DNA of 64,000 bases. It comes from Candidatus Aenigmatarchaeota archaeon (GTDB lineage Archaea; Aenigmatarchaeota; Aenigmatarchaeia; QMZP01; QMZT01). Positions 37,900-55,319 of this stretch are shown here, piece after piece (within the stretch, counting starts at the first letter, position 1; each line of letters starts with the position of its first letter). The DNA is taken from positions 1 through 64,000 of the forward strand of contig JAPLVC010000004.1 of assembly GCA_026397315.1 (NCBI GenBank), written 5' to 3'. The position numbers and the translations under genes are program-made. The notes beneath the pieces are model-generated. The model was not told the origin of the DNA. It made no database searches and saw nothing but the letters and a program-made list of their open reading frames with translations.

Positions 37900-39426
37900 T
37901 CAGAGCTTCAGGAATCCCTTGCCAGCCCTCTTCAGCGAGATGTGCCTTTCCCAGTCTTCCGTCTTCTCCGGGTAGTCCTCCCTGAAGTGGCAGCCCCTCG
38001 ATTCGGTGCGCGCAAGAGCGGCGCTAACGACGAGCCTCGCCGCCAGAAGTATGTTGTTTATCTCGATTATCTCTTCGTTGACGCCTTCTTTCTTGGACAT
38101 GTAAGCCTGCATGAGCGATATCTCCCTGAGCGCTTTTATCAAATCTTTCTCGTTCCTCACTATGCCCGCGTGCTTCCACATAACCGACTTCAGTCGCGTC
38201 TTCAGCTCCGTCGGGCGGTCGCTGGCGACGCTCATCTGCCTGGTATTTACAAAGCCAATCTCCCTGCCGACGTTGTAGGCATGCGCCGATTCCGCCGCTC
38301 GCGATGAGAACACAAGCGACTCGAGAAGCGAATTCGACGCGAGCCTGTTCGCGCCGTGCACGCCGGTGCACGCCACTTCGCCAAAAGCGTAAAGCCCTGG
38401 GACGTTCGTTTTTCCGTCGATGTCCGTCTTCAGCCCGCCGCAGGTATAATGGGCGACAGGCTCGACGGGTATCCTATCTTTAGTGATATCGATGCCGTTC
38501 TCGAGGCACGTCCTGTAAATCGTCGGGAATCGTTCTTTCACGAACGCCTTGCCAATATGAGTCATGTCAAGATAAACCGTGCCGTTTCTCAGCTCACTGA
38601 ACATCGCGCGCGACACCTCGTCCCTGCGGGCAAGCTCCTCGACGAAGCGCTTCCCGTCATCGTTAACCAGCTTCGCGCCCTCGCCGCGGACCGCTTCGGA
38701 TATCAGAAAGAAAGGCTTTCCCTTGCGGCGAAGCGCCGTGGGATGGAACTGCACGAACTCGATATCCTCCACGTCACAGCCTGCGCGGAAGCCCATAGCC
38801 AGCCCGTCGCCGGTCGCGATTTCGGGATTCGAAGTGTTCTCGTAAATCTCGCACAATCCGCCAGTCGCGATAGCGACGGCTTTCGCGAAGAATTCAACCA
38901 TCCGTTTTTTGCCGACGTCGAAGACACGCGCGCCTATGCACGCGCCGTCCTTGAGTATGAGGTCGAAGGCCACGTGCTTCTCGAAGATGCGGATGCCGTT
39001 CCTGCGCGCGTTCTCGATCATCGCCTTCTCGATTTCCGCGCCCGTCATGTCGCCGCGGTGGACGATGCGCTTTCTCGAATGCCCGCCTTCTTGCCCTAGT
39101 TGCAGGCCGCCCGCTTTCGCGTCCTTGTCGAACGTCGCTCCCAGCGCCATCAGATTCTCGATCTCGTCTGGCGCCTGCTTCACCATAATCTCGACTGCGT
39201 ACTTGTCGCATAAACCATCGCCGGATTTCAGCGTGTCGCGCACGTGCAGATTGAAGCTATCGGTTTTAGAAAACACGGCCGCAATGCCGCCCTGGGCGAA
39301 GTTAGTGTTCGATTCGACGGCGTCTTTCTTCGTGACCAGACAGACACTGCCATACTCCAAGGCCTGCAGCGCGAAGTTGAGTCCTGCAATCCCGGAACCT
39401 ATGACCAGAAAATCAGACTTTATCAT
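37900..39426 (-). CDS. nadB: L-aspartate oxidase
   Basis: FAD-binding DFLVIGSGIAGL; succinate dehydrogenase/fumarate reductase flavoprotein-family motifs; about 508 aa. Confidence 0.9.
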   Translation of the reverse strand: MIKSDFLVIGSGIAGLNFALQALEYGSVCLVTKKDAVESNTNFAQGGIAAVFSKTDSFNLHVRDTLKSGDGLCDKYAVEIMVKQAPDEIENLMALGATFDKDAKAGGLQLGQEGGHSRKRIVHRGDMTGAEIEKAMIENARRNGIRIFEKHVAFDLILKDGACIGARVFDVGKKRMVEFFAKAVAIATGGLCEIYENTSNPEIATGDGLAMGFRAGCDVEDIEFVQFHPTALRRKGKPFFLISEAVRGEGAKLVNDDGKRFVEELARRDEVSRAMFSELRNGTVYLDMTHIGKAFVKERFPTIYRTCLENGIDITKDRIPVEPVAHYTCGGLKTDIDGKTNVPGLYAFGEVACTGVHGANRLASNSLLESLVFSSRAAESAHAYNVGREIGFVNTRQMSVASDRPTELKTRLKSVMWKHAGIVRNEKDLIKALREISLMQAYMSKKEGVNEEIIEINNILLAARLVVSAALARTESRGCHFREDYPEKTEDWERHISLKRAGKGFLKL

Positions 39427-39458
39427 TAAGGGTTAATTGTTTGCATGGGTTTAAAATA

Positions 39459-40361
39459 TTACTTGAGCTTCAGCATCCTGTCGAGAGCGCGTCTCGCCTT
39501 CTCCGCGATCGCTGCATCAACCTTAACTTCATTCGTCCCGTCACGGAGGCAAGCGTATACTTTCTCGAGCGTCGTCTTCTTCATGTTCTGGCACGCGCCG
39601 GCAGCTGGATAAAATTTCTTCCCCTTGACCTCGCGGCGCAGCCGCTCGCACATCCCCTCTTCGGTCACGACTATGAATTCCTTCGCTTTGGACGTTTTCG
39701 CGTATTTTATCATGCCGCCCGTGCCGCACACATGATCAGCCAGCTTCAGCACGTCCTCCGGGTTTTCAGGATGGGCCATCACCTTCGCTTTCGGATGTCG
39801 CCATTTGAGCTTCTTCACGGCCTTCGGGTCGACTGCGTCGTGCACGACACAGAAGCCCGGCCACGGTATTATCTTCTTCCTCGTCTTCGTCTGCACGTAT
39901 TTCGCCATGTTGTAGTCCGGCACGAATATGATCTCGTGCGCGGAGACCTCCTCGACGGCTTCCTTGAAGTTCGCCGATGTGCAGCACACGTCTGATTCGG
40001 CCTTCGTCGCGGCGTTCGTGTTTATGTATGCGACCACGCCCGCCCGCGGGTACTCGGTCTTTTTCTGGCGCAGCTTTCCGGCAGTAGCCATCGCGGCCAT
40101 CGGGCATTTCGCTTCGACGTCCGGAATCAGCACGCGCTTCGCCGGGTTCAGCAGTTTCGCCGATTCGGCCATGAAATCCACTCCGCAGAAAACAATGACT
40201 TTCGCTTTCGTTCGCTTCGCTCGTATGGCCAGCTCCAGGGAATCTCCTATGAAATCAGCAACATCATAAATCTCGGGGCGCTGGTAGTTGTGGACGAGGA
40301 TTATCGCATTCTTCGCCTTCTTCAGCTCTTTGATCTTCCTGATGAGCTCCTGAGTTTTCAT
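39459..40361 (-). CDS. nadA: quinolinate synthase A
   Basis: Three-repeat NadA fold with conserved Cys residues; about 300 aa; immediately upstream of nadB on the same strand. Confidence 0.9.
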   Translation of the reverse strand: MKTQELIRKIKELKKAKNAIILVHNYQRPEIYDVADFIGDSLELAIRAKRTKAKVIVFCGVDFMAESAKLLNPAKRVLIPDVEAKCPMAAMATAGKLRQKKTEYPRAGVVAYINTNAATKAESDVCCTSANFKEAVEEVSAHEIIFVPDYNMAKYVQTKTRKKIIPWPGFCVVHDAVDPKAVKKLKWRHPKAKVMAHPENPEDVLKLADHVCGTGGMIKYAKTSKAKEFIVVTEEGMCERLRREVKGKKFYPAAGACQNMKKTTLEKVYACLRDGTNEVKVDAAIAEKARRALDRMLKLK

Positions 40362-40997: not shown

Positions 40998-41360
40998 CTA
41001 AAGCTTTTCCTTCCCGGACTTCAGCGTGCCCGAGACGCGCACGGTCTGGAATATCGCCTTCGAATCGCCTATCTGGCGGACGAGCGCTAAAGCGAACTTC
41101 ACGTCGTCCACGTATTTGTGCGAGCACTGGATGACGCCTTCCCTGTCGCTCCACAGGTTGCGGATGACCCACGGCTTCGCCTTCGCCATGCCGCTCTCGC
41201 CCATCCAGCCGAGCATCGAGCCCATGATGGCATTGCGCGCTTCGGAAAAATCGAGCCTCATGCTGGACTGGATCCTGAAGAATACGTATCGTTTCCGCTC
41301 GACCTGGCTGGGCATGTGCTTCAGCCTCGACGGCTTCTTTGCATGCGTCTTTTCGGCCAT
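40998..41360 (-). CDS. rnp2: RNase P protein component 2 (Pop5/Rpp14 family)
   Basis: RKRYVFFRI...AKPWVIRNLWSDREGVIQCSHKYVDDVKFALALV...VRVSGTLK aligns closely to archaeal Pop5. Confidence 0.8.
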   Translation of the reverse strand: MAEKTHAKKPSRLKHMPSQVERKRYVFFRIQSSMRLDFSEARNAIMGSMLGWMGESGMAKAKPWVIRNLWSDREGVIQCSHKYVDDVKFALALVRQIGDSKAIFQTVRVSGTLKSGKEKL

Positions 41361-41503
41361 GTTTGATTATTCTCCTCCGTTGTTATTATATTGCATATAT
41401 AATCTGTAATATAATCTGTAATATATAATTAGGGGTTTGTTCCTACTTATGAGTATTTAAAACCTATCTACATATAAAAAGTATCAAAAATAATTACTTA
41501 GGA

Positions 41504-41971
41504 GTGTTAAAAAAGCAACAATTTAATTTGATGAAATTTCCAGAGGACTTTTATATGATCGCTGCCGATTACAGGGAGCCGGTGAACCTGGACTCGATTG
41601 AAATCAACCTTACGGCGAGCATGATATGCTCCAACATGAACCGCCTCTGCATACTCTACCTTCTCAAGAAATCTGACAAAAACTGCATGCAGGCCGAGAA
41701 GATCGCCTCGACTCTTGGAATCTCGCACCGCACTGTTCTTTACCATCTTGACATTCTCAAGGACTACGGCCTGGTCGAGGTAAGAGAGTTCAGAAAAAAG
41801 GGTGCGAAGCTGCTGCGTTCCGTGTGGGGACTCAGCGAGGAGAACGGGACCAGCGTCGAAAAGGTATTCGGCCGCATCTGCAAGAAATTCGACATTAAAG
41901 AGATAGAAAAAATGCTCGGCGAGAACTGCGGTGCCACACTATCCAGGAAAAGAAACCCGATGGACAACTAA
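41504..41971 (+). CDS. ArsR-family winged-helix transcriptional regulator
   Basis: ASMICSNMNRLCILYLLKKSDKNCMQAEKIASTLGISHRTVLYHLDILKDYGLVE HTH. Confidence 0.7.
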   Translation: MLKKQQFNLMKFPEDFYMIAADYREPVNLDSIEINLTASMICSNMNRLCILYLLKKSDKNCMQAEKIASTLGISHRTVLYHLDILKDYGLVEVREFRKKGAKLLRSVWGLSEENGTSVEKVFGRICKKFDIKEIEKMLGENCGATLSRKRNPMDN

Positions 41972-42315
41972 GATAAAATCATCCAAGCCAGTCTAATTTT
42001 CATGCAAGCCTCATTTTAGTTCTAAAATATTATCGGGCACAAGCGGCTTGGTATCAAACCAGTTTCATACTGGTTTCAAATAACCTACAACCATCCCGGG
42101 AATTTTTTTCATGGATGTTTTATTTTCCTATTTGTGAGTGAATACACTTTTTGCAACATTTTTCTTGGAACAAAGTAGGTTTATAAACGTTTCGAAAATT
42201 TTCGGTAAGTATATAAAGATTCATCCGAACGTCAAAGCAATGCATGAACTTTTAGTACACGATTTAGCAGGTTTTGAGTTAGAGTTTTATAATATAGAAA
42301 AGGATTTTTGGTGAG

Positions 42316-45300
42316 GTGAGTCAGATGAATACGAATAAGATGAAGGCATACGTCGGCGCCGTAGGCGCGACGAAACTGACTGCCATAATCGTTATGGCTT
42401 GTATTCTGGGGGTTTTCGCTGTCTCGATGGCTAGCGTTTTTGCCGAATCCAATGCTCAAATCTACACAACGGATATCGAAGGTATAGCGAAATTAGATTT
42501 CACCCCTGATTCAATAGTATATATACACGGCACGAGTTTCTCACCTAACTCGTCAATAAGCATCACCCTCACCAGGCCAGGCCAATATTCATATTCAGAA
42601 TCCTGTGGTCCAGAATATTGCGATATATCGAACATTTTTGGCGGTCCACCTGAAATAGAAACAGGTTTCGACGCACCACAGACCTCGAATGAAGAGGGAG
42701 ATTTCGTTTATAGATATGACTTAGACGGTATAGTCGGAGAATACACAGTCACAGTCACCGATGGCGCAGATGTAAAGACTTTTGTTTTCACCGACGCGAG
42801 AAATATTAACTGGGCCAAATTGAACGGAACAAGTACTGTAACAGTTCTACCCAGCACTAGCATCACAGCTTCTGTGAATGTTACAACAACCAGTACAGAT
42901 CATGACTGGAAATGCACAAAATATAAAATAGAGGGTGGAAGTAACATCACTGTAAATCACGGAAACCATTATGGACAAGGTACATACATAGAATCATTTT
43001 CTATAACAGCACCTGCGACACCTGGCATCTATGATGTCAGTTTTTGGGCCTTTGATGATAATGATTGCACAAGTGGCCAAAGTATTGAAAAGAAATTGGT
43101 AGATGGCATAACAGTCACATCACCTGCTATTTGCGGTAATGGTGTAAAAGAAGGCTCTGAAGGATGCGACGATGGTAACACAGCAAATGGCGATGGTTGT
43201 AATTCCGGTTGTCAAGTAGAAACTGGATGGGCATGCACAGGGACACAGCCGAGTGTTTGCACTCCTGCCTGTGGTAATGGTATTATAACTTCACCTGAAA
43301 CCTGCGACGATGGCAACACGGCCAGTAGTGATGGATGTAGCAATGTTTGTCAGACAGAGAATGGCTGGACGTGCACAGGCACTCCAAGCGTTTGCACTGT
43401 AGCAAACCAGAATCTTACGCAGTCCTGCGGCATAGACATGGCGCTTGTGATAGACGTTTCCGGCAGCATAGACAGCACAGAACTTGCACAGATGAAGACG
43501 GCTCTTAATAGTTTTGTTGACGCATTCCTTCCGAACACACCGACGAAAATAGCTGTCATCAAGTTCGATACGACAGCAACAGTTATTCACGCATACTCAA
43601 ATGATGCCACATCCCTGAAGAACGCCATTAATGGCGCAAGTGGCGGTGGATACACCAACTGGCAGGATGCTCTTCTTGACACCCATTCATTGTATGACCA
43701 CAGGATTGACAAGCCTGATTTGTACGTTTTCGCTTCTGACGGAGAACCGAACAGATACGGCGACCCGGCAGTAAGTGCCACGACACCTGTAGCTGTCGCA
43801 CACGCTGTTACTGAAGCGAACCACATAAAACTTCACGGCATCAGAATAATAACGCTTGGAATAGGAACAGGAGGCAGCTCATCTCTTATAAACAACCTCA
43901 AGGCGATTTCAAGCAATGACGCTTATTACGACACGAATTTCGAAACTATTGCAGATGACCTCGCCGACCTTGCCAACGATTTGTGCGGCGGGACAATAAA
44001 CGTCCAGAAATTCGTTGACGGCAACACCGCTGCCGACTGGCAGTTCGCTGTCACTGGCGGAACTTCGAACCCACCGTCAGGTTACACAGGAACTGACGGC
44101 TTTATCACTTTTGACATAGACACCAGCGGCGGAAATGCGACCGTCAGCGTGACGGAAACAGTACAGAACGGTAATAGTTTCACGAGCGCCCACTGTTATA
44201 GTGATTCGCAGCACCAGAACGAAGTCGGAACACCGGGACAGGGAACAGTGGTCAGCATACAAGTCGGTGCGAACGACGCGATTTACTGCGAGTTCAACAA
44301 CCACCACAACGTTTGCTCTGAATACTCGACAGAAGGCAGCTGCAACGCGCAGACTGGCCTTTGTACATGGTGCCCGCAGTGTAATCAGCATCATCAATGG
44401 AGTAGCCTGCTTGGCGGAGACCAGTGCGTCCCTGCAGGTGCATGCCCGAACCCCTACACATGTGAATACGGGGAATGCGGCGCCGAATGCGAAGATGACG
44501 AAAGACCTTGCACGGCATACTGCGACCAGAGTCTGAATTATTATGGGGCAGGAATTTGCGGAAATGATTGCACCTGCAATTATCCATCACCAACTCCCTG
44601 CGACGATGGTGACAAATGCACGACAGACGGATGTAGTAATGCTAATGGATGCGCACCACATGAACCAGTCGACTGCAACGACAATAATATATGCACGATA
44701 GATTCATGCGACCCATCAGTCGGCTGTTCTAACGTAAGGATACCTACCGAAACTTCTTGCACCGACCAGATAGACAACGATTGCGACGGCAAGACAGACT
44801 GCGCTGACACCGATTGTGCGGGAACTCCTACATGCTTCTACCAGAGACCGTGCGATGCCCCAACCGATATCTGTCAATGGAACAAAGTTCTTCCGCTTGG
44901 CTCAGAGAACTGCTGCGGCTGCAATCTCGGTTTCAATACCTATTGGCCGCTTAACACTCAAGCAAGCGCAGAATGCACTTTCACTGCTGATGCAAACATG
45001 AAACAGAAACTTTACATCTCGGTGAACAACGATGTGATAAGATGCACGCTTAACGGAAACGTAATTTTCGAAAACCAACAGCACGAAGGCTGTGCGGAAA
45101 TAAATCCTAGAAACGGTTATACCGTTCCTATTAGTCCGACTGCCGGTGTAAACACAATAATTTGCGAAATAAATGACAGAGGTTCGATGACGCACTTCGA
45201 TGCATGCGTTGTTGAAAAACAATGTTTTAACAACGCTGATTGTGACAATGGTTTATACTGCGACGGCATTGAATATTGCGATCAAAACAATCAGTGTCAG

Positions 45301-48300
45301 CCAGGAACTCCTGCTGACTGTTCAGACCAATTTTTCTGCACCGTTAATGAAAGATGTGAAGAAGGAACGAGTACATATGAATGTTTATCTGACCCACTTG
45401 ACTGCTCCGGAAACGACATCCAAGGAATAGCGACTTGCACGAACGACCCTGACAACTACGCATGGACTTTTGATTTCAGAAGCCTCTTCACAAGCATCTG
45501 CGATGACGATAACAATGTTTGTACGAGTGGTAGTGAAGACATATCACACACATGCGCAGATGCTAATGCGACCGACGGCGGACCGGTTATTCTGCCTCAG
45601 GGAGGCGTGAGCACATGCACGGCTGAGTGCGATAGCTATGGAACGGAATGCCAGCCGTACCTTAACCCAGCGAATGATTATTGTTATTACAATGGACAAT
45701 GTAACACGAATCCGACAGTATGCCAGTGTGCTTATTCAGGCGTGCCATGCCCGGACCCTGGTTACATAGATGAAAATAGGATCTGCCACTATGGCGAGAG
45801 ATCCTGCACCGCAAACGGATGTGTTTATCGATACAACGACCCAATGGGCTGCAAGGACATCTGCGATCCGGTTTTGGGACCGCAGGACACGACAGGCCCG
45901 ATCACCGACATTCTTAAGATAACGCCGAACCCGACTTGCGGTAAGATAAGCTTCAACGCGACCATAACCGAGAACTGCACCAACATCTCGGACGGACTAT
46001 ATGCGATAGATATTGGGATAGATTTCTGCCCGTTTCCGGGTTACGGAGGCTATCAGGTTCTTCCGCTTGACGACAGCTCATATGATGGAGACAAAATGCA
46101 GGAGCTTGTAGGCAAGATTAACCTGATGCTGACGGGCTACAACGACGGACGCCACACCCTTTACGTCAGGGGCAAGAACACTGACGGCACATGGGGCAAC
46201 TGCGATTCATACGGCTTCGCCTTGGACACTCTGGCGCCCGCGACAGAATCGCAGAGCATAACGCCCAACATGGCGTGCGGCAGCAATCCTTACTTCGTAG
46301 CGAGAATTTGCGACCCATTCAACGAGTCAGGCATGTGCGGCGCGGAATACTACATAGATGATTTCACACAGGGAAACGGCGAAGGAATACCGATGTACCC
46401 GGTCGACGGACAGTGGAACGACGCATGCGAGTACGTTTACGCGTGGGTTGACATAAGCCAGGTTTCTGAAGGGACGCATTACATAAAGGCTCACGGCATT
46501 GACTGCACAGGATGCAACTGGGGCAAAATTGAGAACTTCGCTCCGGTATGGTTCATAAAAGACACTGTAGCTCCGGTATCGACAAAGACTGTCGGAACGC
46601 CGAAGATACAGTGCAGCAGCGACGTGGGAGAGTGCTGGTTCATAACCCAGGGCACTGAGATAACCATGAACGCCCAGGACTCTGATCCGGGCTTCGGCGA
46701 ATACTCAGGAAACCTGAACATATCTTCGCACTACCCGTACTACCAGGGATACGTTAACATTTATTACAGACAGAGATGGAAGGAGAACTACGATTCAGAA
46801 GAGTGGGGAACGTGGAGCAGCTGGACTCTTTACACGGGTCCGTTCAAGTTCACGGAAGACTCACTCCACGAGATAGAGTACTACTCTACGGACGCCTGTG
46901 CCAACAACGAAACATCGAAATTCGAGCTTGACATAGTCGACACTCAGCCACCCGAGACCGCAAAAGACGTCTTGGGCCCGAAAGTCGCAGGCGACGGCAA
47001 CCCGATACACTACTACATAACAGATGACAGCACGATAAAACTTACATGCACAGACCCGCAGCCTCACCCGGTAGACCAGGTCACTCTTAACTGGGCGGTT
47101 TACTACAGTGAGAACTGCACGAACCCGACATGGAGCAGCGAGCCGATAATGAGCGGCCATGAGCAGGGCGGCTACAAGGAGATAACGAACCTTCAGGACT
47201 CGTGCCACAAGATTGTTTACAGCTGCGTCGACGCGCTCAACAACGTTGAAACAGAGCACGTCGAGATAGACGCGGTCGACAACAAGTATCCGCTTGTAGA
47301 AAAGGCGGTAGACGAGCCGAAGGTGCCATACACACTTCCCATCCAATACATGGGCACGGAACCGTTTGATGTGGCAGACCAAGCATGGTATGTCAACCAG
47401 AACACGCTGATAACGCTGACATGCACCGACCAGCTGCCTCATCCGGTCGACGATGTCAAGATATACTACAAATATTATGTGGACGGCGTGCAGCATCAGA
47501 ACTGGACGGAATACACCGCACCATTCACATACAACGAGGACACGTACCACAATCTCTACTACTACTGCGTTGACGCCCTTGGAAACAAGGGACCGACGCA
47601 CGTCGAATTGGACGTGGTTGACACGCAGGCTCCGACCTCGGTGAAAACGCTGACAGGCGCGAAGCACGCATGCACACCTGAAGAGGCGAGCATGTACGGC
47701 ATAGCGGACTGCTCGTTCATAACGCACGACACAAAAGTCGAGCTGTCCTGCACCGACGGCAACCCGCACCCGGTTGATGACGTCGAGCTTCACTACAAGA
47801 TTGAGTGGAAGCTGAACTGGGAAGGCAGCTGGCAGACCCTTAGGGACCAGACAGTAGAAGACAATTACACGAGCTTCTACTACGAGGATCTTCCGGTAGA
47901 ATACCAGGATTCGTTCCACAAGCTCACTTGGTACTGCGTAGATGCGCTTGACAACACGGAGAGCCAGCACGTAGAATTGGACATTGTTGATACACAGGCG
48001 CCGCAGACCGTGAAGACGGTCTCGATGCCGAAATACGCAGGCCCGATAGGCAGCGGCATAGACTACTACATAACCAAGGATACTGTAATCAATCTGACAT
48101 GCACAGACGGCAACCCGCACCCGGTTGACCATGTAACCCTTAACTGGAAAATTTACTGGAGCAGCGAATGCGGACCAAACGCTGTCTGGAGTATAGATCC
48201 GATAGCAAGCGGTGCAGAGGGAGACGGCAACGTTCTGATAACCAACCTCGGCGATTCATGCCACAAGCTTGTCTACAACTGCGTCGACCAGCTCGGCAAC

Positions 48301-51300
48301 GCTGAAAACACACAGGTCGAGATAGACGCGGTCGACAACCAGGCGCCAATCGGAACAAAGAACGTTGGCCAGCCTAACGTGCCCTGCGTCGGCGAAGTAG
48401 AATGCACGCAGTTCGACTACTGGGTTCGTGACCACGTCACGACGGTAACGCTTGACTGCACCGACGCACAGCCGCATCCGATCGGCGGAGAGCTGATGTG
48501 CTACAAGATGGGCTACGACGTCCCAGCGACGCCAGACCTTACACAGCAATATTGCACGCAGTTCGGCGGCAAAATGGAAGCTGACGGATACTGCTGCGTA
48601 GACGTCGATGGCAGCAAGAACTATGTATTCAATTTCACGGAAGATTCCGTGCACACACTGGGTTACTACTGCAAGGACGCATTCGGAAACGCCAACGGCC
48701 TTGACACGGAGACGTTCAAGGTAGACTCGATCGCTCCTAACACAACAAAGACTTATGAGGGACCGTTCTACACCGATGGCAAGTCAGACTGGATAGACAC
48801 CGTATCAACGGTAAAACTTACTGCAACTGATGGCGGAGAGATATGCCACGTAGACGGCACGACCACATACTACGCGGTCACACAGGTGAACGAATCGTTC
48901 TGCTACGATCCGGCAGCGAACTGCCAGCAGATGCACACATACGAGCAAGGCGTCTGGAACACATACACTAGCGCATTCCCGGTCGCTGAGTCATGCCACC
49001 TGATAGAGTTCTACAGCGTGGACGTGCTCGGCAACAAGGAACCGATAAAGCACCAATGCGTGTTCTCAGACCACACAGCTCCAGCCACAAACAAGACTTA
49101 CGGAACACCGCTAGTGGAAGCTGTCACAGGAGGTTATCCGAAGTGGATAACTTCAGCGACACCGATAACCCTTACAGCTGAGGACCAGCTGCCGCACCCG
49201 TCCGGACTGAAAGAAACAAAGTACAGGGTGACGCTTGTGAACGACCTGAACTGCTACGAAGCGTGCAATGCAGAAAGCATCGGCGCATGGAACACCTACA
49301 CGGTGCCGTTCACAATCACGGAAGACTCCTGCCACATGATAGAGTACTTCAGCATAGACAACGTCCAGAAGACCGAGCCGGTCAAGAAGCAGTGCATATT
49401 CGTGGACAACAAGGCGCCGATATCGAACAAGACGTTCGACGGCTTCAACGTCCCGTGCAGCGAACTGACTTGCAGGACTGAAGGCAGCTGTGATTACTAC
49501 ATAAACCAGAACACGAAGATAATACTCAGCTGCACCGACCAGCTCCCGCACCCGGTCGACGACGTCAAGATATACTACAAATACACTGTTGACGATCAGC
49601 CACACGAATCATACTCGGACTGGACGCTATACACTGCTCCAATACAATATAATGAAGATTCGAAACACACTCTCGAATGGTACTGCGAGGACGCCCTTGG
49701 AAACAGGGAGCAGACTCACACCCAGATAGAGAGAGTAGACACAACACCTCCGACGACAGTCAAGACGTTCAGCAAACCGACATACCCTGAAGATTTGAAC
49801 CAGAACGGAACAATAGACAACGAGCAGGAACAGAATTACTGGGTCACTTCGGACACTGCGATAACGCTGACCACGACTGACGGCGGACCAATATGCGCAG
49901 CAGGCTCTTCAAAGCTTTACTACACGGTAAAGTGGGACAAGAACTGCGACGGCGACTTCAATGATTTCGGCGAAGTCGTGATAAATAATCAACACGTGCA
50001 TGTGAACGCAACCACGTGCGAACTCAAGAAGACCTTGTATCTGGAAGGCGAGTGCCTGCATGAGATAAGATGGCATGCAGTCGACGCTCTTGGAAACGTT
50101 GAAACAGAACACGTGCAGCAGCACAAGGTCGACAACAGTCCTCCGCACATACTGATACTTAAGCCGGTCGACGGCTGGTATTCGAAGGGCGAGGACATAC
50201 CCGCGATAGCTGAAGTCAAGGATCTCAACAGTGCGGACAGCCCGTGCGAGCAGTTCAGGAACAACTGCAACGAGCTCGGCGAGAACTGTGCGGTAGGCAT
50301 CGAGGACGGAGCGCAGTGCTACGCCTTCCTTGTGAACCTTGAGTTCCTTAACATGAACCCGATGGAAATATTCGACCTGAGCGACGTGACGAGATATAAT
50401 CTCGAAACGAACGGAACGCTCCTTTACAATGCGGCAGCGCAGGAATGCCAGGGCTATGCAGTAATCCCCGAGAACAGCGACGTGCAGAGCGGCATCCACA
50501 TATTCGTCGTCGAAGCTGAAGACAGCCTCGGCAACTACGCCAACAGCATCGACGAGATAAGGCTTGCGATAGACCAGGCATGCGGCGGCGGCTGCTGGAG
50601 CAGCGACCCGTACGACCTGTGCGAGCCACAGTGCGTTGAGGACGTCCTTCAGGACATAATAACGACATGGAACCTGCCGAAGATAGGCATAGACACGAAC
50701 GCACCGGAAGTTGTGATAACGGCACCGGTTGACACAGAGGGCTATTACGTTGACAAGGGACAGCTTGCTGTCTCGGCTGACGTGACCGAGTCCGGCATAA
50801 CGTGCGCGATAACTTCAGGCACGCCGTGCTACGTGAAAATCGACGGGACATCAATCGGAACTCTGTACTATGATAATAACGAGAAGGAATGCACTGGTAC
50901 GCTTGTGGTGCCCGAGGATGTGCCTAACGGCATGGAAGTTCCATTGACAGTCGAAGTCTCCGACAACTGCGGCAACATCGGAAAGGGAGTGGTTTATGTC
51001 ACGGTTGACACCATGAACCCGGCACCGGTGATACTTGCAGCGGAGGACGTCGAGAACCCGCCATACGACACTGATGGCAACTACGACCTTGTATGGACTG
51101 GCGGAACCGACACGAACTTCAAACAATTCGATATAGTAATAGATGGCACGACCTACTACGACGTGACGCAGCCTTACGAAGGCCTTTCGGCCGAGGGCAG
51201 GCACACGTACAAGGTCATCGCTACCGACGAAGTCGACAAGATTGCAACTTCCAACGAAGTGGTAGTCTGGGTCGACACTGTAGCACCTGGACTGGACGTG

Positions 51301-52425
51301 ACGGGAAGCACACCCAACATGGGATTCTTCCTGTTCACATACACCGCGATTGATCCAAACCCGAGCTCCGGCATGCAGCCGCTTCAGGTGATTGGCGGTT
51401 TCGGAGGCATCTGCTCGAACACGCTTCCGGCAGGCTTCTGCATGGTCGCAGGCACGAATGATGCAATACTTAAAGCATGCGACAACGCGGGCAACTGCGT
51501 CAGCCACTCGACTGAAGGCACTGAAACCGACGTGACCCCGCCTTCGATAATCTACTCGAGCCCGAGCGGCAAGATAGAGCAGAACGAAGAGCTTAAACTG
51601 GAAGTAACGACAAACGAGCCGGCATACTGCTATTACGGCACGGAAGACAACTGGGCCACGATGACACAGATGAGCACATCTGTAAACATAGACCATTCGA
51701 TTGACCTTCCAAGCCCGCTTGCAGACGGCCTTTATGTCTACCACGTCCAGTGCAGGGACTTCGCAGGCAACATAATGGACAGCTCGAAAACGATAGTGTT
51801 CTACGTGAACACTGACGGCCAGTACTGCTACAGCACGGACATGACTGCAGGATGGAACACGTTCTTCCTGCCACAGCTGATACTGGACGACATCAACTTC
51901 AACTGCGGCTATGAGCCGTACGAGACAGCTGATGTACTGGGCTCGCTTGAAGGCAAGTACAGCATAGTGTGGTACTACGATGAGAGCGAAGGGTGGCTGT
52001 TCTACACGCCACAATATCCGGAGTTCTCGACACTGACGCAGTTCAGCGACCAGACAAGCAATCCATACTACATAAAGATGACCGGGCCGGCAAAGCTCGG
52101 ACTCCAGTGCGAGGATGAATGTGTCAGCAACTACTGCGGTGATGGCCAAGTCAACGGCGACGAGCAGTGCGAACTTCCTGACGATAATAACAACGAATAC
52201 TGCACCCAGACGACGCAGCAATGCTACCAAGATACTCACAAGACGCAATACAGGGACGCATACGGCTACTGTGATGAATCGTGCGGCTGCATGGAAGATC
52301 AGGAGTGGGGATCGCCCCAGTGCTTAAAGGACAGCTGCGGAGCGACGTGTGGCGGCGACAGCGACTGCTCGCAAGGACAATACTGCAACACAGAAATTTG
52401 CCAGTGTATGAACATACCTGATTAG
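42316..52425 (+). CDS. giant secreted/surface protein (3369 aa). It has an N-terminal signal/anchor helix, two Cys-rich repeats (CGNG..EGCDDGN..DGC), a VWA domain with MIDAS motif, a Cys/Asp-rich block, about 12 tandem modules of roughly 130 aa, and a Cys-rich C-terminus
   Basis: A single uninterrupted ORF preceded by GGTGAGGTGA. VWA motif is LVIDVSGSID...TNWQDAL. The repeated module consensus is VDTQAP..VKT...C...I..DT.I.L.CTDG.PHPVD.V...YK......Y..PF.Y.EDS.H.L.YYCVDALGN.E..HVELD. Confidence 0.85.
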   Translation: MSQMNTNKMKAYVGAVGATKLTAIIVMACILGVFAVSMASVFAESNAQIYTTDIEGIAKLDFTPDSIVYIHGTSFSPNSSISITLTRPGQYSYSESCGPEYCDISNIFGGPPEIETGFDAPQTSNEEGDFVYRYDLDGIVGEYTVTVTDGADVKTFVFTDARNINWAKLNGTSTVTVLPSTSITASVNVTTTSTDHDWKCTKYKIEGGSNITVNHGNHYGQGTYIESFSITAPATPGIYDVSFWAFDDNDCTSGQSIEKKLVDGITVTSPAICGNGVKEGSEGCDDGNTANGDGCNSGCQVETGWACTGTQPSVCTPACGNGIITSPETCDDGNTASSDGCSNVCQTENGWTCTGTPSVCTVANQNLTQSCGIDMALVIDVSGSIDSTELAQMKTALNSFVDAFLPNTPTKIAVIKFDTTATVIHAYSNDATSLKNAINGASGGGYTNWQDALLDTHSLYDHRIDKPDLYVFASDGEPNRYGDPAVSATTPVAVAHAVTEANHIKLHGIRIITLGIGTGGSSSLINNLKAISSNDAYYDTNFETIADDLADLANDLCGGTINVQKFVDGNTAADWQFAVTGGTSNPPSGYTGTDGFITFDIDTSGGNATVSVTETVQNGNSFTSAHCYSDSQHQNEVGTPGQGTVVSIQVGANDAIYCEFNNHHNVCSEYSTEGSCNAQTGLCTWCPQCNQHHQWSSLLGGDQCVPAGACPNPYTCEYGECGAECEDDERPCTAYCDQSLNYYGAGICGNDCTCNYPSPTPCDDGDKCTTDGCSNANGCAPHEPVDCNDNNICTIDSCDPSVGCSNVRIPTETSCTDQIDNDCDGKTDCADTDCAGTPTCFYQRPCDAPTDICQWNKVLPLGSENCCGCNLGFNTYWPLNTQASAECTFTADANMKQKLYISVNNDVIRCTLNGNVIFENQQHEGCAEINPRNGYTVPISPTAGVNTIICEINDRGSMTHFDACVVEKQCFNNADCDNGLYCDGIEYCDQNNQCQPGTPADCSDQFFCTVNERCEEGTSTYECLSDPLDCSGNDIQGIATCTNDPDNYAWTFDFRSLFTSICDDDNNVCTSGSEDISHTCADANATDGGPVILPQGGVSTCTAECDSYGTECQPYLNPANDYCYYNGQCNTNPTVCQCAYSGVPCPDPGYIDENRICHYGERSCTANGCVYRYNDPMGCKDICDPVLGPQDTTGPITDILKITPNPTCGKISFNATITENCTNISDGLYAIDIGIDFCPFPGYGGYQVLPLDDSSYDGDKMQELVGKINLMLTGYNDGRHTLYVRGKNTDGTWGNCDSYGFALDTLAPATESQSITPNMACGSNPYFVARICDPFNESGMCGAEYYIDDFTQGNGEGIPMYPVDGQWNDACEYVYAWVDISQVSEGTHYIKAHGIDCTGCNWGKIENFAPVWFIKDTVAPVSTKTVGTPKIQCSSDVGECWFITQGTEITMNAQDSDPGFGEYSGNLNISSHYPYYQGYVNIYYRQRWKENYDSEEWGTWSSWTLYTGPFKFTEDSLHEIEYYSTDACANNETSKFELDIVDTQPPETAKDVLGPKVAGDGNPIHYYITDDSTIKLTCTDPQPHPVDQVTLNWAVYYSENCTNPTWSSEPIMSGHEQGGYKEITNLQDSCHKIVYSCVDALNNVETEHVEIDAVDNKYPLVEKAVDEPKVPYTLPIQYMGTEPFDVADQAWYVNQNTLITLTCTDQLPHPVDDVKIYYKYYVDGVQHQNWTEYTAPFTYNEDTYHNLYYYCVDALGNKGPTHVELDVVDTQAPTSVKTLTGAKHACTPEEASMYGIADCSFITHDTKVELSCTDGNPHPVDDVELHYKIEWKLNWEGSWQTLRDQTVEDNYTSFYYEDLPVEYQDSFHKLTWYCVDALDNTESQHVELDIVDTQAPQTVKTVSMPKYAGPIGSGIDYYITKDTVINLTCTDGNPHPVDHVTLNWKIYWSSECGPNAVWSIDPIASGAEGDGNVLITNLGDSCHKLVYNCVDQLGNAENTQVEIDAVDNQAPIGTKNVGQPNVPCVGEVECTQFDYWVRDHVTTVTLDCTDAQPHPIGGELMCYKMGYDVPATPDLTQQYCTQFGGKMEADGYCCVDVDGSKNYVFNFTEDSVHTLGYYCKDAFGNANGLDTETFKVDSIAPNTTKTYEGPFYTDGKSDWIDTVSTVKLTATDGGEICHVDGTTTYYAVTQVNESFCYDPAANCQQMHTYEQGVWNTYTSAFPVAESCHLIEFYSVDVLGNKEPIKHQCVFSDHTAPATNKTYGTPLVEAVTGGYPKWITSATPITLTAEDQLPHPSGLKETKYRVTLVNDLNCYEACNAESIGAWNTYTVPFTITEDSCHMIEYFSIDNVQKTEPVKKQCIFVDNKAPISNKTFDGFNVPCSELTCRTEGSCDYYINQNTKIILSCTDQLPHPVDDVKIYYKYTVDDQPHESYSDWTLYTAPIQYNEDSKHTLEWYCEDALGNREQTHTQIERVDTTPPTTVKTFSKPTYPEDLNQNGTIDNEQEQNYWVTSDTAITLTTTDGGPICAAGSSKLYYTVKWDKNCDGDFNDFGEVVINNQHVHVNATTCELKKTLYLEGECLHEIRWHAVDALGNVETEHVQQHKVDNSPPHILILKPVDGWYSKGEDIPAIAEVKDLNSADSPCEQFRNNCNELGENCAVGIEDGAQCYAFLVNLEFLNMNPMEIFDLSDVTRYNLETNGTLLYNAAAQECQGYAVIPENSDVQSGIHIFVVEAEDSLGNYANSIDEIRLAIDQACGGGCWSSDPYDLCEPQCVEDVLQDIITTWNLPKIGIDTNAPEVVITAPVDTEGYYVDKGQLAVSADVTESGITCAITSGTPCYVKIDGTSIGTLYYDNNEKECTGTLVVPEDVPNGMEVPLTVEVSDNCGNIGKGVVYVTVDTMNPAPVILAAEDVENPPYDTDGNYDLVWTGGTDTNFKQFDIVIDGTTYYDVTQPYEGLSAEGRHTYKVIATDEVDKIATSNEVVVWVDTVAPGLDVTGSTPNMGFFLFTYTAIDPNPSSGMQPLQVIGGFGGICSNTLPAGFCMVAGTNDAILKACDNAGNCVSHSTEGTETDVTPPSIIYSSPSGKIEQNEELKLEVTTNEPAYCYYGTEDNWATMTQMSTSVNIDHSIDLPSPLADGLYVYHVQCRDFAGNIMDSSKTIVFYVNTDGQYCYSTDMTAGWNTFFLPQLILDDINFNCGYEPYETADVLGSLEGKYSIVWYYDESEGWLFYTPQYPEFSTLTQFSDQTSNPYYIKMTGPAKLGLQCEDECVSNYCGDGQVNGDEQCELPDDNNNEYCTQTTQQCYQDTHKTQYRDAYGYCDESCGCMEDQEWGSPQCLKDSCGATCGGDSDCSQGQYCNTEICQCMNIPD
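46228..50160 (+). repeat. in-frame tandem array of about 12 divergent modules of roughly 330-390 nt each within the giant gene (protein-level repeats)
   Basis: Module starts recognisable at about 46228, 46561, 46940, 47275, 47614, 47983, 48328, 48721, 49066, 49404, 49738 and 50130 (V-D-[TN]-x-[AP]-P motif). Confidence 0.6.
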
Positions 52426-52526
52426 ATGGGCCAAAGAGGCCCTTTCCTCTTTTATTTACTATTCAGGAGGAAAAAGAACCCAAAAGGTATATAAAGATAG
52501 ATTACATATAAAAAGTAAGGTAAACT

Positions 52527-53699
52527 ATGAAAAATAACTTCGCATTATCCGGAATCGTTTTTGTATCTTTGATTTTTGTTTTAGCCCAGTCCGCTTACGC
52601 CACCAGTTTTCCATGCGCTTTCGGCGGAACAGTCACAGTCAACGGTAATCCGATTGCCGGAGAACAGGTTACAGCATATCTGAACGGAACTGGAGTGCTT
52701 GTGGGCGAAGGCAAAAACACGAGCGCCGGATATGGCATCTCGATAGTCGATGCCAGCGACCAGTATGTCTTTTTCAAAGTCATGGGCACGCTTGCCAATG
52801 AAGGTTTGCAAAACTGCGTTGAAGGAACTTTCACACAGCTTAACCTTACGGTGGATGACGGTGATAACGATGGCTACAATGTTCTTGAAGATTGCAACGA
52901 CTCGAATGCGGCTGTGAACCCAGGCGCGGCCGAGATTTGCAACGGCATAGATGACAATTGTAATGGTGTTATTGACGAAGGTTTCAGCGACCTCAACACT
53001 TCATGTACTGTAGGCATAGGAGGCTGCGCGAGAACCGGAGTCAAGATATGTTCTGCTGACAAGCTTTCAGTTGTCTGCAGCGTCACTGCTGGAGCACCGA
53101 GCTACGAAGCATGCGGTGACGGCATAGACAACGACTGCAACGGCCTCACCGACGAGATCTGCGGCGGCGGTGGCGGCGGTGGAGGCGGTGGCGGCTCAAG
53201 CGCTTACTGTGGCGACGGCAATCTCCAGAAATACAGGGGCGAAGAGTGCGAGCTGAACATCGCATGCAACGGCACGGGCCTGACATGCAACCTTACAAGC
53301 TGCAAGTGCGTCGAATGCACCGAGAGCTGGGCATGCGGAGAGTGGGGACAGTGCGCTGGCGGCGTTCAGACGAGGACTTGCGTCGACGCGAACACGTGCG
53401 GCACGGTCCTGCAGAAACCATCCGAGAGCCAGACCTGCACCGGAAGCGGCAGCAGCGGCACCCAGATAACGAATCTTGGCGCGATAGTGTGCGGCAACGG
53501 CGTGTGCAACGACGGCGAAACATGCGAGAACTGCCCGGCGGACTGCCAGTGCGCTGGAGCGAACGCGCAGGAAAATCAGGGCTTCAACATATTAGGCGTA
53601 TTCACCGGAGCGCCCGGCTTGAGCCTGCTTGGCCTGCTTGCGCTGGCAATAATCATAGCGATTCTGTTCTTCACGACGCGCAAGAAGAAAAAGAAGTAA
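52527..53699 (+). CDS. secreted Cys-rich surface protein with MopE-like putative metal-binding repeats, a poly-Gly linker and a PGF-CTERM-like C-terminal anchor
   Basis: Signal peptide ends at AQSAYA; DCNDSNAAVNPGAAEICNGIDDNCNGVIDEG and CGDGIDNDCNGLTDE motifs; GGGGGGGGGGGSS linker; C-terminus GAPGLSLLGLLALAIIIAILFFTTRKKKKK. Confidence 0.7.
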   Translation: MKNNFALSGIVFVSLIFVLAQSAYATSFPCAFGGTVTVNGNPIAGEQVTAYLNGTGVLVGEGKNTSAGYGISIVDASDQYVFFKVMGTLANEGLQNCVEGTFTQLNLTVDDGDNDGYNVLEDCNDSNAAVNPGAAEICNGIDDNCNGVIDEGFSDLNTSCTVGIGGCARTGVKICSADKLSVVCSVTAGAPSYEACGDGIDNDCNGLTDEICGGGGGGGGGGGSSAYCGDGNLQKYRGEECELNIACNGTGLTCNLTSCKCVECTESWACGEWGQCAGGVQTRTCVDANTCGTVLQKPSESQTCTGSGSSGTQITNLGAIVCGNGVCNDGETCENCPADCQCAGANAQENQGFNILGVFTGAPGLSLLGLLALAIIIAILFFTTRKKKKK

Positions 53700-53700
53700 A

Positions 53701-54132
53701 TTATTTTTCTTCTTTTGCTTTTATTTCATCTTCAGTCTTTACTTTAATCCCGTTCTTCTTCAGCAGCGCGGCCGTTATGCCGTCGCCTTTCACCAGTTTT
53801 CCTGAGAACGAGCCGTCGTAGATTTCGCCTGAGCCGCACGAAGGCGATTTGGCCTTTAGTATCGCTTCCTTGCATCCGGCGAGTTTCGCTATTTTCAGCA
53901 TTTCTGCAGCGCCTTTCGCCAGCGCTTTCTTCACATCCCTGCCGTCGCATGCGAAGGCGCGGCCGTTTATGAGTTCGGTTGCCAGCCTGGGAGTGGTCAG
54001 GCCTCCGAGCTGCTCGGGGCAGACTGGAATCGCCTTGCCTTTCCTGACCATTTCCATGACTTTTTTGCTGGATTTGGAATTGCCGTCATACCTGCATTTC
54101 ACGCCCGCGAGGCATGCGCTCACAAGTTTCAT
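53701..54132 (-). CDS. DUF523 (TudS-like) [4Fe-4S]-binding protein
   Basis: SACLAGVKCRYDG N-terminal motif characteristic of DUF523. Confidence 0.7.
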   Translation of the reverse strand: MKLVSACLAGVKCRYDGNSKSSKKVMEMVRKGKAIPVCPEQLGGLTTPRLATELINGRAFACDGRDVKKALAKGAAEMLKIAKLAGCKEAILKAKSPSCGSGEIYDGSFSGKLVKGDGITAALLKKNGIKVKTEDEIKAKEEK

Positions 54133-54142
54133 TGAATCACCG

Positions 54143-54721
54143 TCAAATCATTTTTCTTATCTCTTCGTTGAACCTCTTCGCCCTTTCGAGAGACGTTTTT
54201 GCCTTGTTTTGCATGGCAGACAAGCCCATCTCGTAAGTGAACCTGGCCCTTTTCCTTCTTTCGTGAAAATAATCGTCCATTAATCCCTTGGCTTTTTCCC
54301 TGCCGAGCATCTGGGTCGCGTCTTCCTCCGCGTCGGCGAAGTCTTCCACAATCTTCTTCTGAAGTTTGCCCGTGAGGTAGAAATAATAAACGAACGCGTC
54401 GAACGTAACGGCATGGATCGAATCCTCGGTCTTTATTTTAACTCCTTCATTTTCAAGCAGTGCCCTCGCCATGTAAAACATCGAATAATAACTCGCGTTT
54501 ATCACCCACAGGAAGCCGTTGAAATCCCGGAAGCCGGTTGATTCTTTCAGGTTTTTGTCGGTCGAAACTCCAAAAAGCAAAAGAGCTGACTCCAGCGAAT
54601 TTCTGGCGTTGTCCAGGAAGAACTGCACGAACCTGCTGTCGCCTCCCTTCGTTATGACGCCTCTTCTTATGCAACTCTCGGCATTCCTTTTCGCTTCCCC
54701 TATTCTTTTATCATCTAGCAT
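54143..54721 (-). CDS. HEPN-domain protein (putative toxin of a HEPN/MNT pair)
   Basis: All-alpha 192-aa protein immediately downstream of, and overlapping, the MNT gene; Rx4-6H-like motif near HERRKRARF. Confidence 0.5.
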   Translation of the reverse strand: MLDDKRIGEAKRNAESCIRRGVITKGGDSRFVQFFLDNARNSLESALLLFGVSTDKNLKESTGFRDFNGFLWVINASYYSMFYMARALLENEGVKIKTEDSIHAVTFDAFVYYFYLTGKLQKKIVEDFADAEEDATQMLGREKAKGLMDDYFHERRKRARFTYEMGLSAMQNKAKTSLERAKRFNEEIRKMI

Positions 54722-55319
54722 TTTTCAGCAACCTGTAATAATTTTCAGCGCCGAACAATAAAATATGGCTGTCCAAAGACTCGTTCATGACGTTTGCCTG
54801 ATCCCTTTTGGCGAGCATTTCGCAAGCGCTTTCGACGGATATCGCATTGCAGTCGAATTTCAGGCTGAACCTGGAAGATATCGTATCCATGAATTTTTCC
54901 GCGGCTTCGGTTTTGTTCCCGTCTTCCAATATGATCAGGGTGTCGACGTCCGAGCCTTTCGTTTCCTTGCATTTCGCGTAAGAGCCGAAAAGCAGCATCG
55001 TAAAGTAGTCCATCTTTATCCCTTCAAGCGCGTCCTTTACGAAAAGTCCGATAGTTTTGTTCTTTTCGAGGAATTCTGCCATCCTAAGGCCTTCCACGTA
55101 GCTTAAAATGGAATGATTTTCCTTGTAGTTCAAAGACACCAGGTTGTGGGTATCCTTTTCCAGCAGCTTGTTCTCAATGAGAGCTTTCACGGATCTGTGC
55201 ATAAGCGGATATGGCTTGCCTGCCGTTTCCGCGACCTGTCTTACGCTAAATTTCTCAGTTATTTTCGAGACAAAAATTTTCATTATTGCCAGCTGAGTCT
55301 TGGTTAACATCACTATCAC
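54711..55319 (-). CDS. minimal nucleotidyltransferase (MNT) with N-terminal winged-helix domain (putative antitoxin)
   Basis: LFGSYAKCKETKGSDVDTLIIL (GS-x9-13-DxD) motif; N-terminal HTH; 11-nt overlap with the HEPN gene. Confidence 0.7.
   Translation of the reverse strand: MIVMLTKTQLAIMKIFVSKITEKFSVRQVAETAGKPYPLMHRSVKALIENKLLEKDTHNLVSLNYKENHSILSYVEGLRMAEFLEKNKTIGLFVKDALEGIKMDYFTMLLFGSYAKCKETKGSDVDTLIILEDGNKTEAAEKFMDTISSRFSLKFDCNAISVESACEMLAKRDQANVMNESLDSHILLFGAENYYRLLKNAR

Follow-up and report, generated by a model that had tools for sequence, protein, structure and literature searches.

How DPANN archaea hold on to the cells on which they live is poorly understood, giant surface proteins being the usual suspects. 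Among these giants, DPANN proteins that carry Ig/FN3 domains in tandem, such as the 'SPEARE'-type proteins of Nanohaloarchaeota, have already been proposed as host binders (PMC10266531). In bacteria, Leptospira OmpL47 (LIC13050; NF047441), after which the OmpL47-type domain is named, is surface-exposed and binds weakly to laminin, fibrinogen, fibronectin, collagen III and elastin (PMC2935396). Gram-positive pilus-tip adhesins of the RrgA/SpaC type, which combine VWA-MIDAS with CnaB/SpaA-type domains, and giant non-fimbrial adhesins made of Ig-like domains in tandem, such as SiiE of Salmonella (PDB 2yn3) and the RTX-type adhesins, provide two further terms of comparison.

We analysed a 64-kb window (the whole stretch of DNA considered here, 64,000 nt) from a small-celled archaeon of the Aenigmatarchaeota (DPANN), in which a single giant gene, with the probable coding sequence 42325..52425 (+), encodes a protein of 3366 aa plus stop. 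Like the SPEARE-type proteins, the product is a giant DPANN surface protein with tandem Ig/FN3-like domains and predicted Sec export (PMC10266531); it differs from them in carrying a VWA and Cys-rich head, in its size (3.4 versus 5-9 kaa), in having no VirB4/TraG-like ATPase domain, and in being followed by a gene for a MopE-motif membrane protein rather than an ATPase. No sequence relationship between the two was detected, and a literature search brought up nothing on VWA or adhesin proteins of Aenigmarchaeota. With OmpL47 it shares a curated domain, NF047446, to which ten of its modules are homologous, whereas it is archaeal, ten times longer and predicted to form FN3/Ig-like sandwiches rather than a membrane barrel. 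It resembles the RrgA/SpaC type in that its VWA domain, which has the full MIDAS motif and is presumably the distal binding unit, directly precedes a borderline SpaA-type domain; in contrast to these, it has no LPXTG, sortase signal or C-terminal TM helix, and it would not be a pilus subunit, its stalk lying within the same polypeptide. Compared with SiiE and the RTX-type adhesins, sequence identity is ~12%, and the giant protein would use an N-terminal Sec signal; Pfam and NCBIfam searches gave no C-terminal T1SS signal, RTX nonapeptide repeats or BIg Pfam domains in it.

We regard the locus as a well-defined attachment candidate: signal peptide, FN3-like stalk and orphan foot domain make up a conserved chassis, the VWA head is apparently exchangeable, and the membrane-anchored neighbour is conserved. 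As a system it is not new in kind: the protein is deposited and annotated, the repeat has a curated NCBIfam model and its predicted fold is ordinary. What is new here is the anchored neighbour, found at seven of eight loci, and a conserved C-terminal domain of ~100 aa that has no solved-fold match.

Predicted export signal, head and stalk

The protein begins with a predicted Sec-type signal peptide (42325..42444, +), delimited from hydropathy and from the termini of 17 orthologues, which consists of a basic n-region, a 23-residue h-region and a cleavage-like site, S-V-F-A↓E. The N-terminal hydrophobic segment noticed in the first-pass annotation is indeed present (aa 8-42 of the deposited protein P0001) and is the only one in the protein. 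At its end, a ..FA↓D/E pattern is kept in the 17 orthologues, and the putative cleavage site (V-F-A↓E) fits the -3/-1 rule, as do those of the orthologues; Sec export with subsequent cleavage is predicted. The next ~225 aa (42445..43116, +) are kept in nearly all orthologues (BLAST coverage 0.8-1.0); this region has no match in Pfam or NCBIfam and probably comprises two beta-sandwich domains.

The head spans about aa 44-1190. Its two Cys-rich acidic repeats of the DUF4215/myxo type (43117..43395, +) pass the cut-offs of both PF13948 (two copies, 43.6 bits versus 27) and TIGR02232 myxo_disulf_rpt (two copies, 74.8 bits versus 20.8), and the DNA of this region contains an 88-nt repeat at 43157/43295, 72% identical. 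They are followed by a VWA domain (43435..43995, +) that matches PF00092 at 50.5 bits (gathering score 23.8) over aa 374-546, covering profile positions 1-169 of 174. Read by eye from the sequence, the MIDAS residues are complete (D380-V-S-G-S384, the T in GGGYTNW and the D in FASDGEPN); the metal-site motif is intact, and metal binding is predicted. A PDB sequence search gave a weak match for this domain, 9no5. Immediately after it lies a candidate SpaA-type prealbumin-like (Cna-B-like) domain (43996..44304, +), which is borderline, PF24514 SpaA_4 scoring 26.8 bits (E 9e-6), just under its cut-off of 27.3. The remainder is a Cys-rich region of ~520 aa (44311..45882, +) with Dicty_CTDC repeats (33 bits when this sub-region is scanned by itself), DNDCDG motifs and an EGF-like stretch. 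The two CGNG..CDDGN..DGC repeats, the VWA domain with its MIDAS motif and the Cys/Asp-rich block, all initially recognised from the letters of the sequence, are borne out, the MIDAS motif by its residues and the rest by profile searches. Neither Pfam nor NCBIfam detects a catalytic, ATPase or toxin domain anywhere in the giant protein. A lectin-like stretch at aa 880-1000 is mostly unique to this protein and is not kept in orthologues. Two orthologues (P0007 and P0010) have neither the VWA nor the SpaA block despite the same gene order, Rpp14/HTH/giant/MopE-anchor, and because these syntenic orthologues retain stalk and foot, the head would seem to be exchangeable.

The stalk consists of 2 + 10 + 5 beta-sandwich modules. 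The central ten form a tandem array of FN3-like, OmpL47-type modules (46558..50127, +; aa 1415-2604), starting at residues 1415, 1541, 1654, 1768, 1891, 2006, 2136, 2251, 2363 and 2474 and carrying the signature VDxxxPxxxK ... TxIxLxCxD..PHPVD ... EDSxH..YYCVDxLGNxE. An HMM built from five modules recovered the other five at E values of 1e-8 to 1e-26, the protein identity between modules being 26-60%. The tandem array announced in the first-pass annotation is real, with ten modules instead of about 12 and a module length of about 119 aa (110-131 aa) instead of 130; the module given there as an example (nt 47614-47985) is module 4. The repeat family, then taken to be undescribed, is a described one, which was the outcome set beforehand as refuting its novelty: scanned as a whole, the protein passes NF047446 (OmpL47-type beta-barrel domain) at 126.2 bits against a cut-off of 40 (E 4.8e-37, 5 stretches), and the orthologue P0017 is named by NCBI 'OmpL47-type beta-barrel domain-containing protein'. 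Pfam alone has no model for it, giving only chance-level matches to the ten modules even at E<=1 (fn3, Big_x, PKD and Cadherin unmatched). Against single modules, NF047446 matches seven of the ten at E 1.3e-8 to 1.4e-4, with scores of 22-35 bits that are all below 40; modules 2, 4, 5 and 6, taken as full modules, give no match at E<0.01, yet their homology by the custom HMM is clear. Note that the model has only 68 positions, whereas the modules of the giant protein have an extra VDxxxPxxxK strand at the N-terminus as well as insertions that vary. The match to NF047441 (Lepto_OmpL47; 102.7 bits, E 3e-29, 7 stretches) lies under the equivalog cut-off of 250, and on these sequence matches the giant protein is classed as a domain-sharer, not an orthologue, of Leptospira OmpL47.

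A PDB search with the module profile gave nothing significant (top match Hoc, E 3.7), whereas a confident structure model of the modules superposes on solved FN3/Ig tandem domains. The check for an Ig/FN3-type fold thus came out positively, and the modelled fold is an ordinary FN3/Ig-like sandwich. A co-varying Cys pair occurs in about half of the family modules: across 188 modules, both columns hold Cys in 94, the first only in 2, the second only in 12 and neither in 80, counts that are inflated by shared module ancestry. By FN3 loop topology, near-invariant Asp, Asn and His residues would lie in loops facing the module junctions, and this placement and their conservation make metal binding at the junctions possible. 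An exhaustive search of cluster representatives finds the module in 3,986, many of which have 8-48 copies, its genome matches are almost exclusively to DPANN, and it is a very common repeat in DPANN surface proteins. Positional orthology between the modules of different orthologues, expected of a strict 'ruler' array, holds for the last two positions only, the rest being shuffled.

The array is flanked on the N-terminal side by two beta-sandwich-like modules starting with D-T-x-x-P (45883..46557, +). Their inclusion in the array, which would give 12 members, was rejected, profile comparison showing no homology to the ten-module family (hhalign probability 0.3-11%). On the other side are five Ig-like, Big_13-like domains (50128..51825, +) starting at aa 2605, 2792, 2897, 2986 and 3071; PF19077 Big_13 scores 27.5 and 34.4 bits on sub-regions, and the starts were set by motif positions. 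By hhalign these domains, too, show no homology to the ten modules, the probability being 11% or less on either side of the array.

The C-terminal end and the downstream gene

Beyond the stalk, an orphan alpha/beta domain of ~100 aa (51826..52125, +), with the motif GWNTFFLP...WYYD..W..Y.P...L..F.D..S.PYYI, is found in nine orthologues at or near the C-terminus. It has no solved-fold match, and a PDB sequence search with its profile gave no significant match. The Cys-rich C-terminal region seen at first reading is a tail of 99 aa with 14 Cys and a DUF4215-like CGDGQVNGDEQCE stretch (52126..52422, +); it occurs in only three orthologues, two of which (P0003 and P0009) have a similar segment near the N-terminus too. 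The giant protein ends ...CQCMNIPD and has no LPXTG or PGF-CTERM sorting signal with a TM helix.

The gene that follows (52527..53699, +) encodes a protein of 390 aa that, we propose, anchors the giant protein in the membrane or acts as its partner. It is composed of a signal peptide, a beta-rich N-domain of ~100 aa (PCAFGGTVTVNG...), MopE-type Cys repeats (Pfam Cu-binding_MopE, 68.8 bits), a Gly run, a TM helix and a KKKKK tail. At seven of the eight loci, a gene in the same orientation lies downstream of the giant gene and encodes a small protein with this common N-domain and a C-terminal TM anchor; apart from the locus described here, the homologues lie directly downstream in L002, L003, L081, L082 and L084, and two genes on in L004. 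The exception is L083, which is syntenic with L003 (S8 peptidase 81% identical) and in which the giant protein itself (P0011), alone among the orthologues, has a TM helix and basic tail at its C-terminus, preceded by a G/T-rich linker. C-terminal domain and neighbour do not correlate perfectly, since P0015 has the neighbour gene and no C-terminal domain.

The two genes are probably not on one transcript, because in this genome they are set apart by a terminator-like hairpin and a TATA box of its own for the second gene. The hairpin, seen in the sequence as GGGCC-aaaga-GGCCC followed by a T-rich run (52428..52457, +), begins 3 nt past the stop codon, and a TATA-box-like 12-mer, GTATATAAAGAT, is located 40 nt 5' of the neighbour ATG (52487..52498, +). 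This 12-mer has two exact copies in the 64 kb, versus 0.17 expected, the other being 113 nt 5' of the giant-gene ATG (42209..42220, +). Upstream of the giant gene lies a 155-aa ArsR/SmtB-type HTH regulator gene (41504..41971, +; Pfam HTH_20/HTH_5), the NCBIfam HTH_metalloreg match of which, at 32.7 bits, is under its cut-off; such a gene adjoins the giant gene in the syntenic L081 and L082 also.

Proposed function and orientation on the cell

We propose that the giant protein is a secreted, non-enzymatic, rod-shaped surface protein and most likely an adhesin, a reading that we hold with fair confidence. The earlier suggestion of an adhesin stands in so far as the giant, secreted, multi-domain architecture is concerned; the adhesin role itself is deduced from that architecture, i.e. 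a VWA/MIDAS head, a beta-sandwich stalk and no catalytic domain. In this proposal, the signal peptide would be removed after export, while the C-terminal end would stay at the cell, gripped by the small membrane-anchored neighbour protein. Disulfides, and possibly metal ions bound by the Asp/Asn/His loops at the junctions, would stiffen the stalk, which, with 17 sandwiches of ~4 nm each, could project the head outward by some 60-70 nm. There the head would bind its ligand, a protein or a glycan of a host cell or of a matrix, through the MIDAS site and Cys-rich modules, and heads would be swapped on a retained stalk and foot.

A more specific version is a two-component system in which the C-terminal domain docks non-covalently, in a cohesin-dockerin-like manner, on the ectodomain of the anchored partner, the spacer of about ten modules sets the distance between symbiont and host, the heads (VWA, ice-binding-like or none) are swapped, and the module serves as a DPANN-wide building block of host-contact fibres. 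Taken as a whole, we consider this version conceivable and rather unlikely.

The orientation could also be the reverse, with an uncleaved N-terminal signal anchor holding the VWA head by the membrane, the C-terminal domain and tail forming the distal ligand-binding tip, and the neighbour being unrelated or a separate surface component. The h-region is long (~23 residues), the C-terminal domain, being without a known fold, could be a binding module, the hairpin terminator and separate promoter divide the giant gene from its neighbour, and P0015 has a neighbour without the C-terminal domain, all of which would suit this arrangement. Against it, a small-residue site (-3 V/I/A, -1 A, then D/E) closes the hydrophobic segment in the 17 orthologues, and the head is the variable part, as expected of a distal binding end. 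Moreover, P0011 has its C-terminal TM helix and basic tail exactly where its syntenic relative has a separate anchor gene, an indication that the C-terminus is the end nearer the cell. We thus judge the reversed orientation improbable.

A structural role in the envelope or matrix, for instance in a sheath, in a biofilm scaffold or as a strut associated with the S-layer, where the protein would shape or protect the cell rather than bind a partner, appears quite improbable as well. Exchangeable heads on a conserved stalk, with a VWA domain whose MIDAS motif is complete, are the hallmark of adhesins, not of lattice proteins, and the gene is present as a single copy in the 64 kb. Typical S-layer subunits are also much shorter, 3,366 aa being far above their usual size.

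Coding sequence and assembly

An artefact of assembly, with the repeat array collapsed, expanded or chimeric, is scarcely credible as the origin of the giant ORF: the source is a short-read metagenome-assembled genome and internal repeats are present, but Tandem Repeats Finder reports no tandem array at the DNA level in the gene, direct DNA repeats are <=109 nt and 60-84% identical, the modules are divergent as protein, the identical gene is present on a separately assembled Logan contig, and 16 orthologues found in other samples, 2,500-4,000 aa in length, have the same architecture, most of them with 10 modules. Misassembly is accordingly unlikely, given the lack of a DNA tandem repeat, the divergence of the modules and the architecture common to the orthologues.

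The DNA repeat searches gave no DGR-like pair of template and variable repeats anywhere in the window, and tRNA and Rfam scans of the 64 kb gave no matches. The single giant ORF first reported is real and intact; counted from a GTG, it covers 42316..52425 (+), 3369 codons without an internal stop, and its length becomes 3366 aa if translation starts at the ATG at 42325. The ATG is the more likely start, since it sits 6 nt past a Shine-Dalgarno-like run seen in the sequence, GGTGAGGTGA (42310..42319, +), which overlaps the GTG of the longer ORF. The 3366-aa product is identical to protein P0001 in NCBI and Logan.

Architecture and transcription of the giant gene

The open reading frame at 42316..52425 (+) runs for 3,369 codons without a stop. 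Its opening GTG lies within a Shine-Dalgarno-like GGTGAGGTGA, and the start codon is probably the ATG at 42325, 6 nt past GGTGAGGTGA, which gives a protein of 3,366 aa identical to one already deposited (P0001). The window also carries archaeal markers, including the RNase P subunits Rpp14 and Rpp30 and NurA. Apart from the number of array modules, all parts named in the first-pass annotation were recovered: a single N-terminal hydrophobic segment with no second one, two Cys-rich repeats (DUF4215/TIGR02232), a VWA domain (50.5 bits, DVSGS...T...D present), a Cys-rich block of Dicty_CTDC-type repeats and a Cys-rich tail (14 Cys in 99 aa). The hydrophobic segment reads as a Sec-type leader, and no catalytic domain was found in the giant protein. 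Behind the VWA and Cys-rich head, the stalk comprises 17 sandwiches, ten of them FN3-like OmpL47-type modules, and an orphan domain forms the foot at the C-terminal end. The array is flanked by beta-rich modules starting with D-T-x-x-P, at aa 1190-1414 before it and aa 2605-3170 (Big_13-like) after it, which display no homology to the ten array modules by profile comparison. A further stretch at aa 880-1000 (window 44953-45315; CTFTADANMKQKLYISVNNDVIRCTLNGNVIF...THFDACVV) resembles a small beta module of lectin or PA14 type; this stretch has no family match and is missing or poorly conserved in most orthologues.

Right after the giant gene stop, at 52428-52457, a terminator-like hairpin (GGGCC-aaaga-GGCCC) is followed by TTTCCTCTTTTATTT. 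The TATA-box-like 12-mer GTATATAAAGAT lies upstream of the giant gene (42209-42220) and again upstream of the small downstream neighbour (52487-52498), these being its only exact copies in 64 kb, with 0.17 expected by chance. The shorter TATATAAA, with seven copies in the window versus 0.95 expected, is probably the TATA consensus of this organism. Given the hairpin and T-run after the stop and a GTATATAAAGAT for each gene, the two are probably transcribed separately, from promoters that resemble each other in their core.

Proposed membrane anchoring and head exchange

The giant protein contains no C-terminal anchor. Directly downstream and on the same strand, the gene at 52527-53699 specifies a protein of 390 aa that comprises a signal peptide, a conserved ~100-aa N-domain, MopE-type Cys repeats, a Gly run and, at its C-terminal end, a TM helix followed by a KKKKK tail. 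Homologues of this putative anchor gene, all keeping the same N-domain and linker-TM-basic tail, directly follow the giant gene at five orthologous loci (L002, L003, L081, L082 and L084) and stand two genes later at L004. The only locus without it, L083 (5001-13481, encoding the orthologue P0011), is syntenic with L003 (8001-18770, encoding P0006 and its anchor), the next gene, an S8 peptidase, being 81% identical; the C-terminus of P0011 itself consists of an FN3 domain followed by a G/T-rich linker, a TM helix and a basic tail. The giant and anchor proteins are connected by this fusion/fission pattern. The complementarity across loci between an anchor gene and an own C-terminal TM helix suggests that the C-terminal end is cell-proximal and that the small neighbour gives the membrane anchor; we consider an inverted topology, with the N-terminal signal anchor left uncleaved, unlikely.

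The gene order Rpp14(-)/ArsR-HTH(+)/giant(+)/MopE-anchor(+)/Rpp30(-) is the same in the window (40998-56144), at L081 and at L082. Despite this shared synteny, the L081 and L082 orthologues (P0007 and P0010) lack the VWA and SpaA block, and P0007 displays an Ice_binding-like match in place of this head. The head of the giant protein thus appears modular, its domains swapped on a conserved stalk. In the mechanism we propose, the protein would be exported and then held at its C-terminal end, the stalk would hold the head out some 60-70 nm (17 domains of ~4 nm, the length of an FN3 domain), and the head would use its MIDAS site to attach to a ligand on a host cell or matrix. A purely structural role in the envelope seems slightly less probable still than the inverted topology.

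The ten-module array and its family

The divergent tandem array noticed in the first-pass annotation is present but consists of 10 modules, not about 12 (aa 1415-2604, each 110-131 aa): an HMM from five modules recovers the remaining five at E 1e-8 to 1e-26, with no further matches elsewhere in the giant protein or in other frames of the window. A second assembly of the gene exists as a separately assembled 13.7-kb Logan contig. That the giant ORF is an assembly artefact is highly improbable, since there is no tandem array at the DNA level (direct repeats of <=109 nt, 60-84% identical), the modules are only 26-60% identical as protein (mean 37%), and the architecture is common to sixteen orthologues from other metagenomes (2,500-4,000 aa, 33-41% identity), 11 of which have exactly 10 modules. 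Across orthologues, module order in the stalk is kept at the last two positions only.

The repeat family looked undescribed in the first-pass annotation; the NCBIfam model NF047446, "OmpL47-type beta-barrel domain", already covers it, with 126 bits on the giant protein versus a cut-off of 40, and there is no Pfam model for the repeat. Scanned singly, seven of the ten modules match NF047446 (E 1e-4 to 1e-8; 22-35 bits each, all below 40), and the orthologue P0017 already carries the NCBI name "OmpL47-type beta-barrel domain-containing protein". By sequence, these scores and this name point to a longer, divergent archaeal form of the curated domain. With the Leptospira OmpL47 equivalog profile the giant protein scores 102.7 bits over seven stretches, well under the cut-off of 250, and we rejected it as an OmpL47 orthologue on this score.

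Over 188 modules from the giant protein and its relatives, the signature reads VDxxxPxxxK ... TxIxLxxxD ... EDSxH ... DxLGNxE, with three near-invariant positions, D (97%), H (95%) and D (98%). The Cys columns LTC.D and YYC.D co-occur (94 CC, 80 neither, 14 mixed), which is consistent with roughly half of the modules holding an intradomain disulfide; shared ancestry, however, inflates the statistic. FN3 topology would place the conserved D/N/H in the BC and FG loops, facing the D-x-V-D linker at the C-terminal end of the preceding module, making a metal-stabilised junction, as in SiiE or cadherins, plausible.

Distribution, related systems and neighbouring genes

Searched with the module profile, the cluster representatives gave 3,986 matches at E<=1e-3, of which 538 reach E<=1e-30; many are 1,300-5,300 aa long with 8-48 module copies. 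The 76 loci recovered from GTDB species genomes are nearly all DPANN (Aenigmat-, Micr-, Nano-/Woese-/Pace-, Iain-, Undin-, Nanohalo- and Altiarchaeota), so surface proteins in DPANN are commonly built with this module. A few MAGs labelled Methanosarcinales, Saccharibacteria or Pseudomonadota (L016, L026, L043, L045, L057) also carry it; possible explanations are contaminated bins, wrong labels and genuine transfer between symbiont and host lineages.

The giant protein is nearest to OmpL47-type domain proteins in sequence, to tandem-Ig adhesins such as SiiE in fold and arrangement, to VWA-plus-CnaB/SpaA pilus-tip adhesins in head composition, and to giant surface proteins of other DPANN in biology. 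In Leptospira, OmpL47 is exposed at the surface and binds ECM weakly (PMC2935396). Nanohaloarchaeal giant surface proteins, proposed as host-binding devices, have tandem Ig/FN3-like domains and a VirB4-like ATPase (PMC10266531), the latter absent here. The giant protein is already deposited and every recognisable domain falls under curated models; modestly new are the spread of the module across DPANN, its assignment to an FN3-like fold rather than a barrel, the conserved giant and anchor gene pair together with its fused form, the swapping of heads while the stalk stays constant, and the orphan C-terminal domain.

Elsewhere in the window, an overlapping HEPN/minimal nucleotidyltransferase (MNT) pair (54143-54721 and 54711-55319, both -) is toxin-antitoxin-like, and similar NTase or HEPN genes lie within a few kb of the giant gene at L003 and L004. 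Adjacent paralogous PQQ-like/BamB-like beta-propeller genes (25416-26717 and 26746-28017, +) have blades visible as 87-nt direct repeats, 61-70% identical. At 37900-40361 (-), NadB (L-aspartate oxidase-like FAD protein) adjoins NadA (quinolinate synthase), both belonging to de novo NAD biosynthesis and here found in a DPANN archaeon, with UbiA prenyltransferase and MatE genes adjacent. A 63-nt direct repeat (62219-62365; 78% identical, 84 nt spacing) lies within a 196-aa ORF without annotation (62216-62806, -), whose reverse-strand reading appears His/Lys/Glu-rich.
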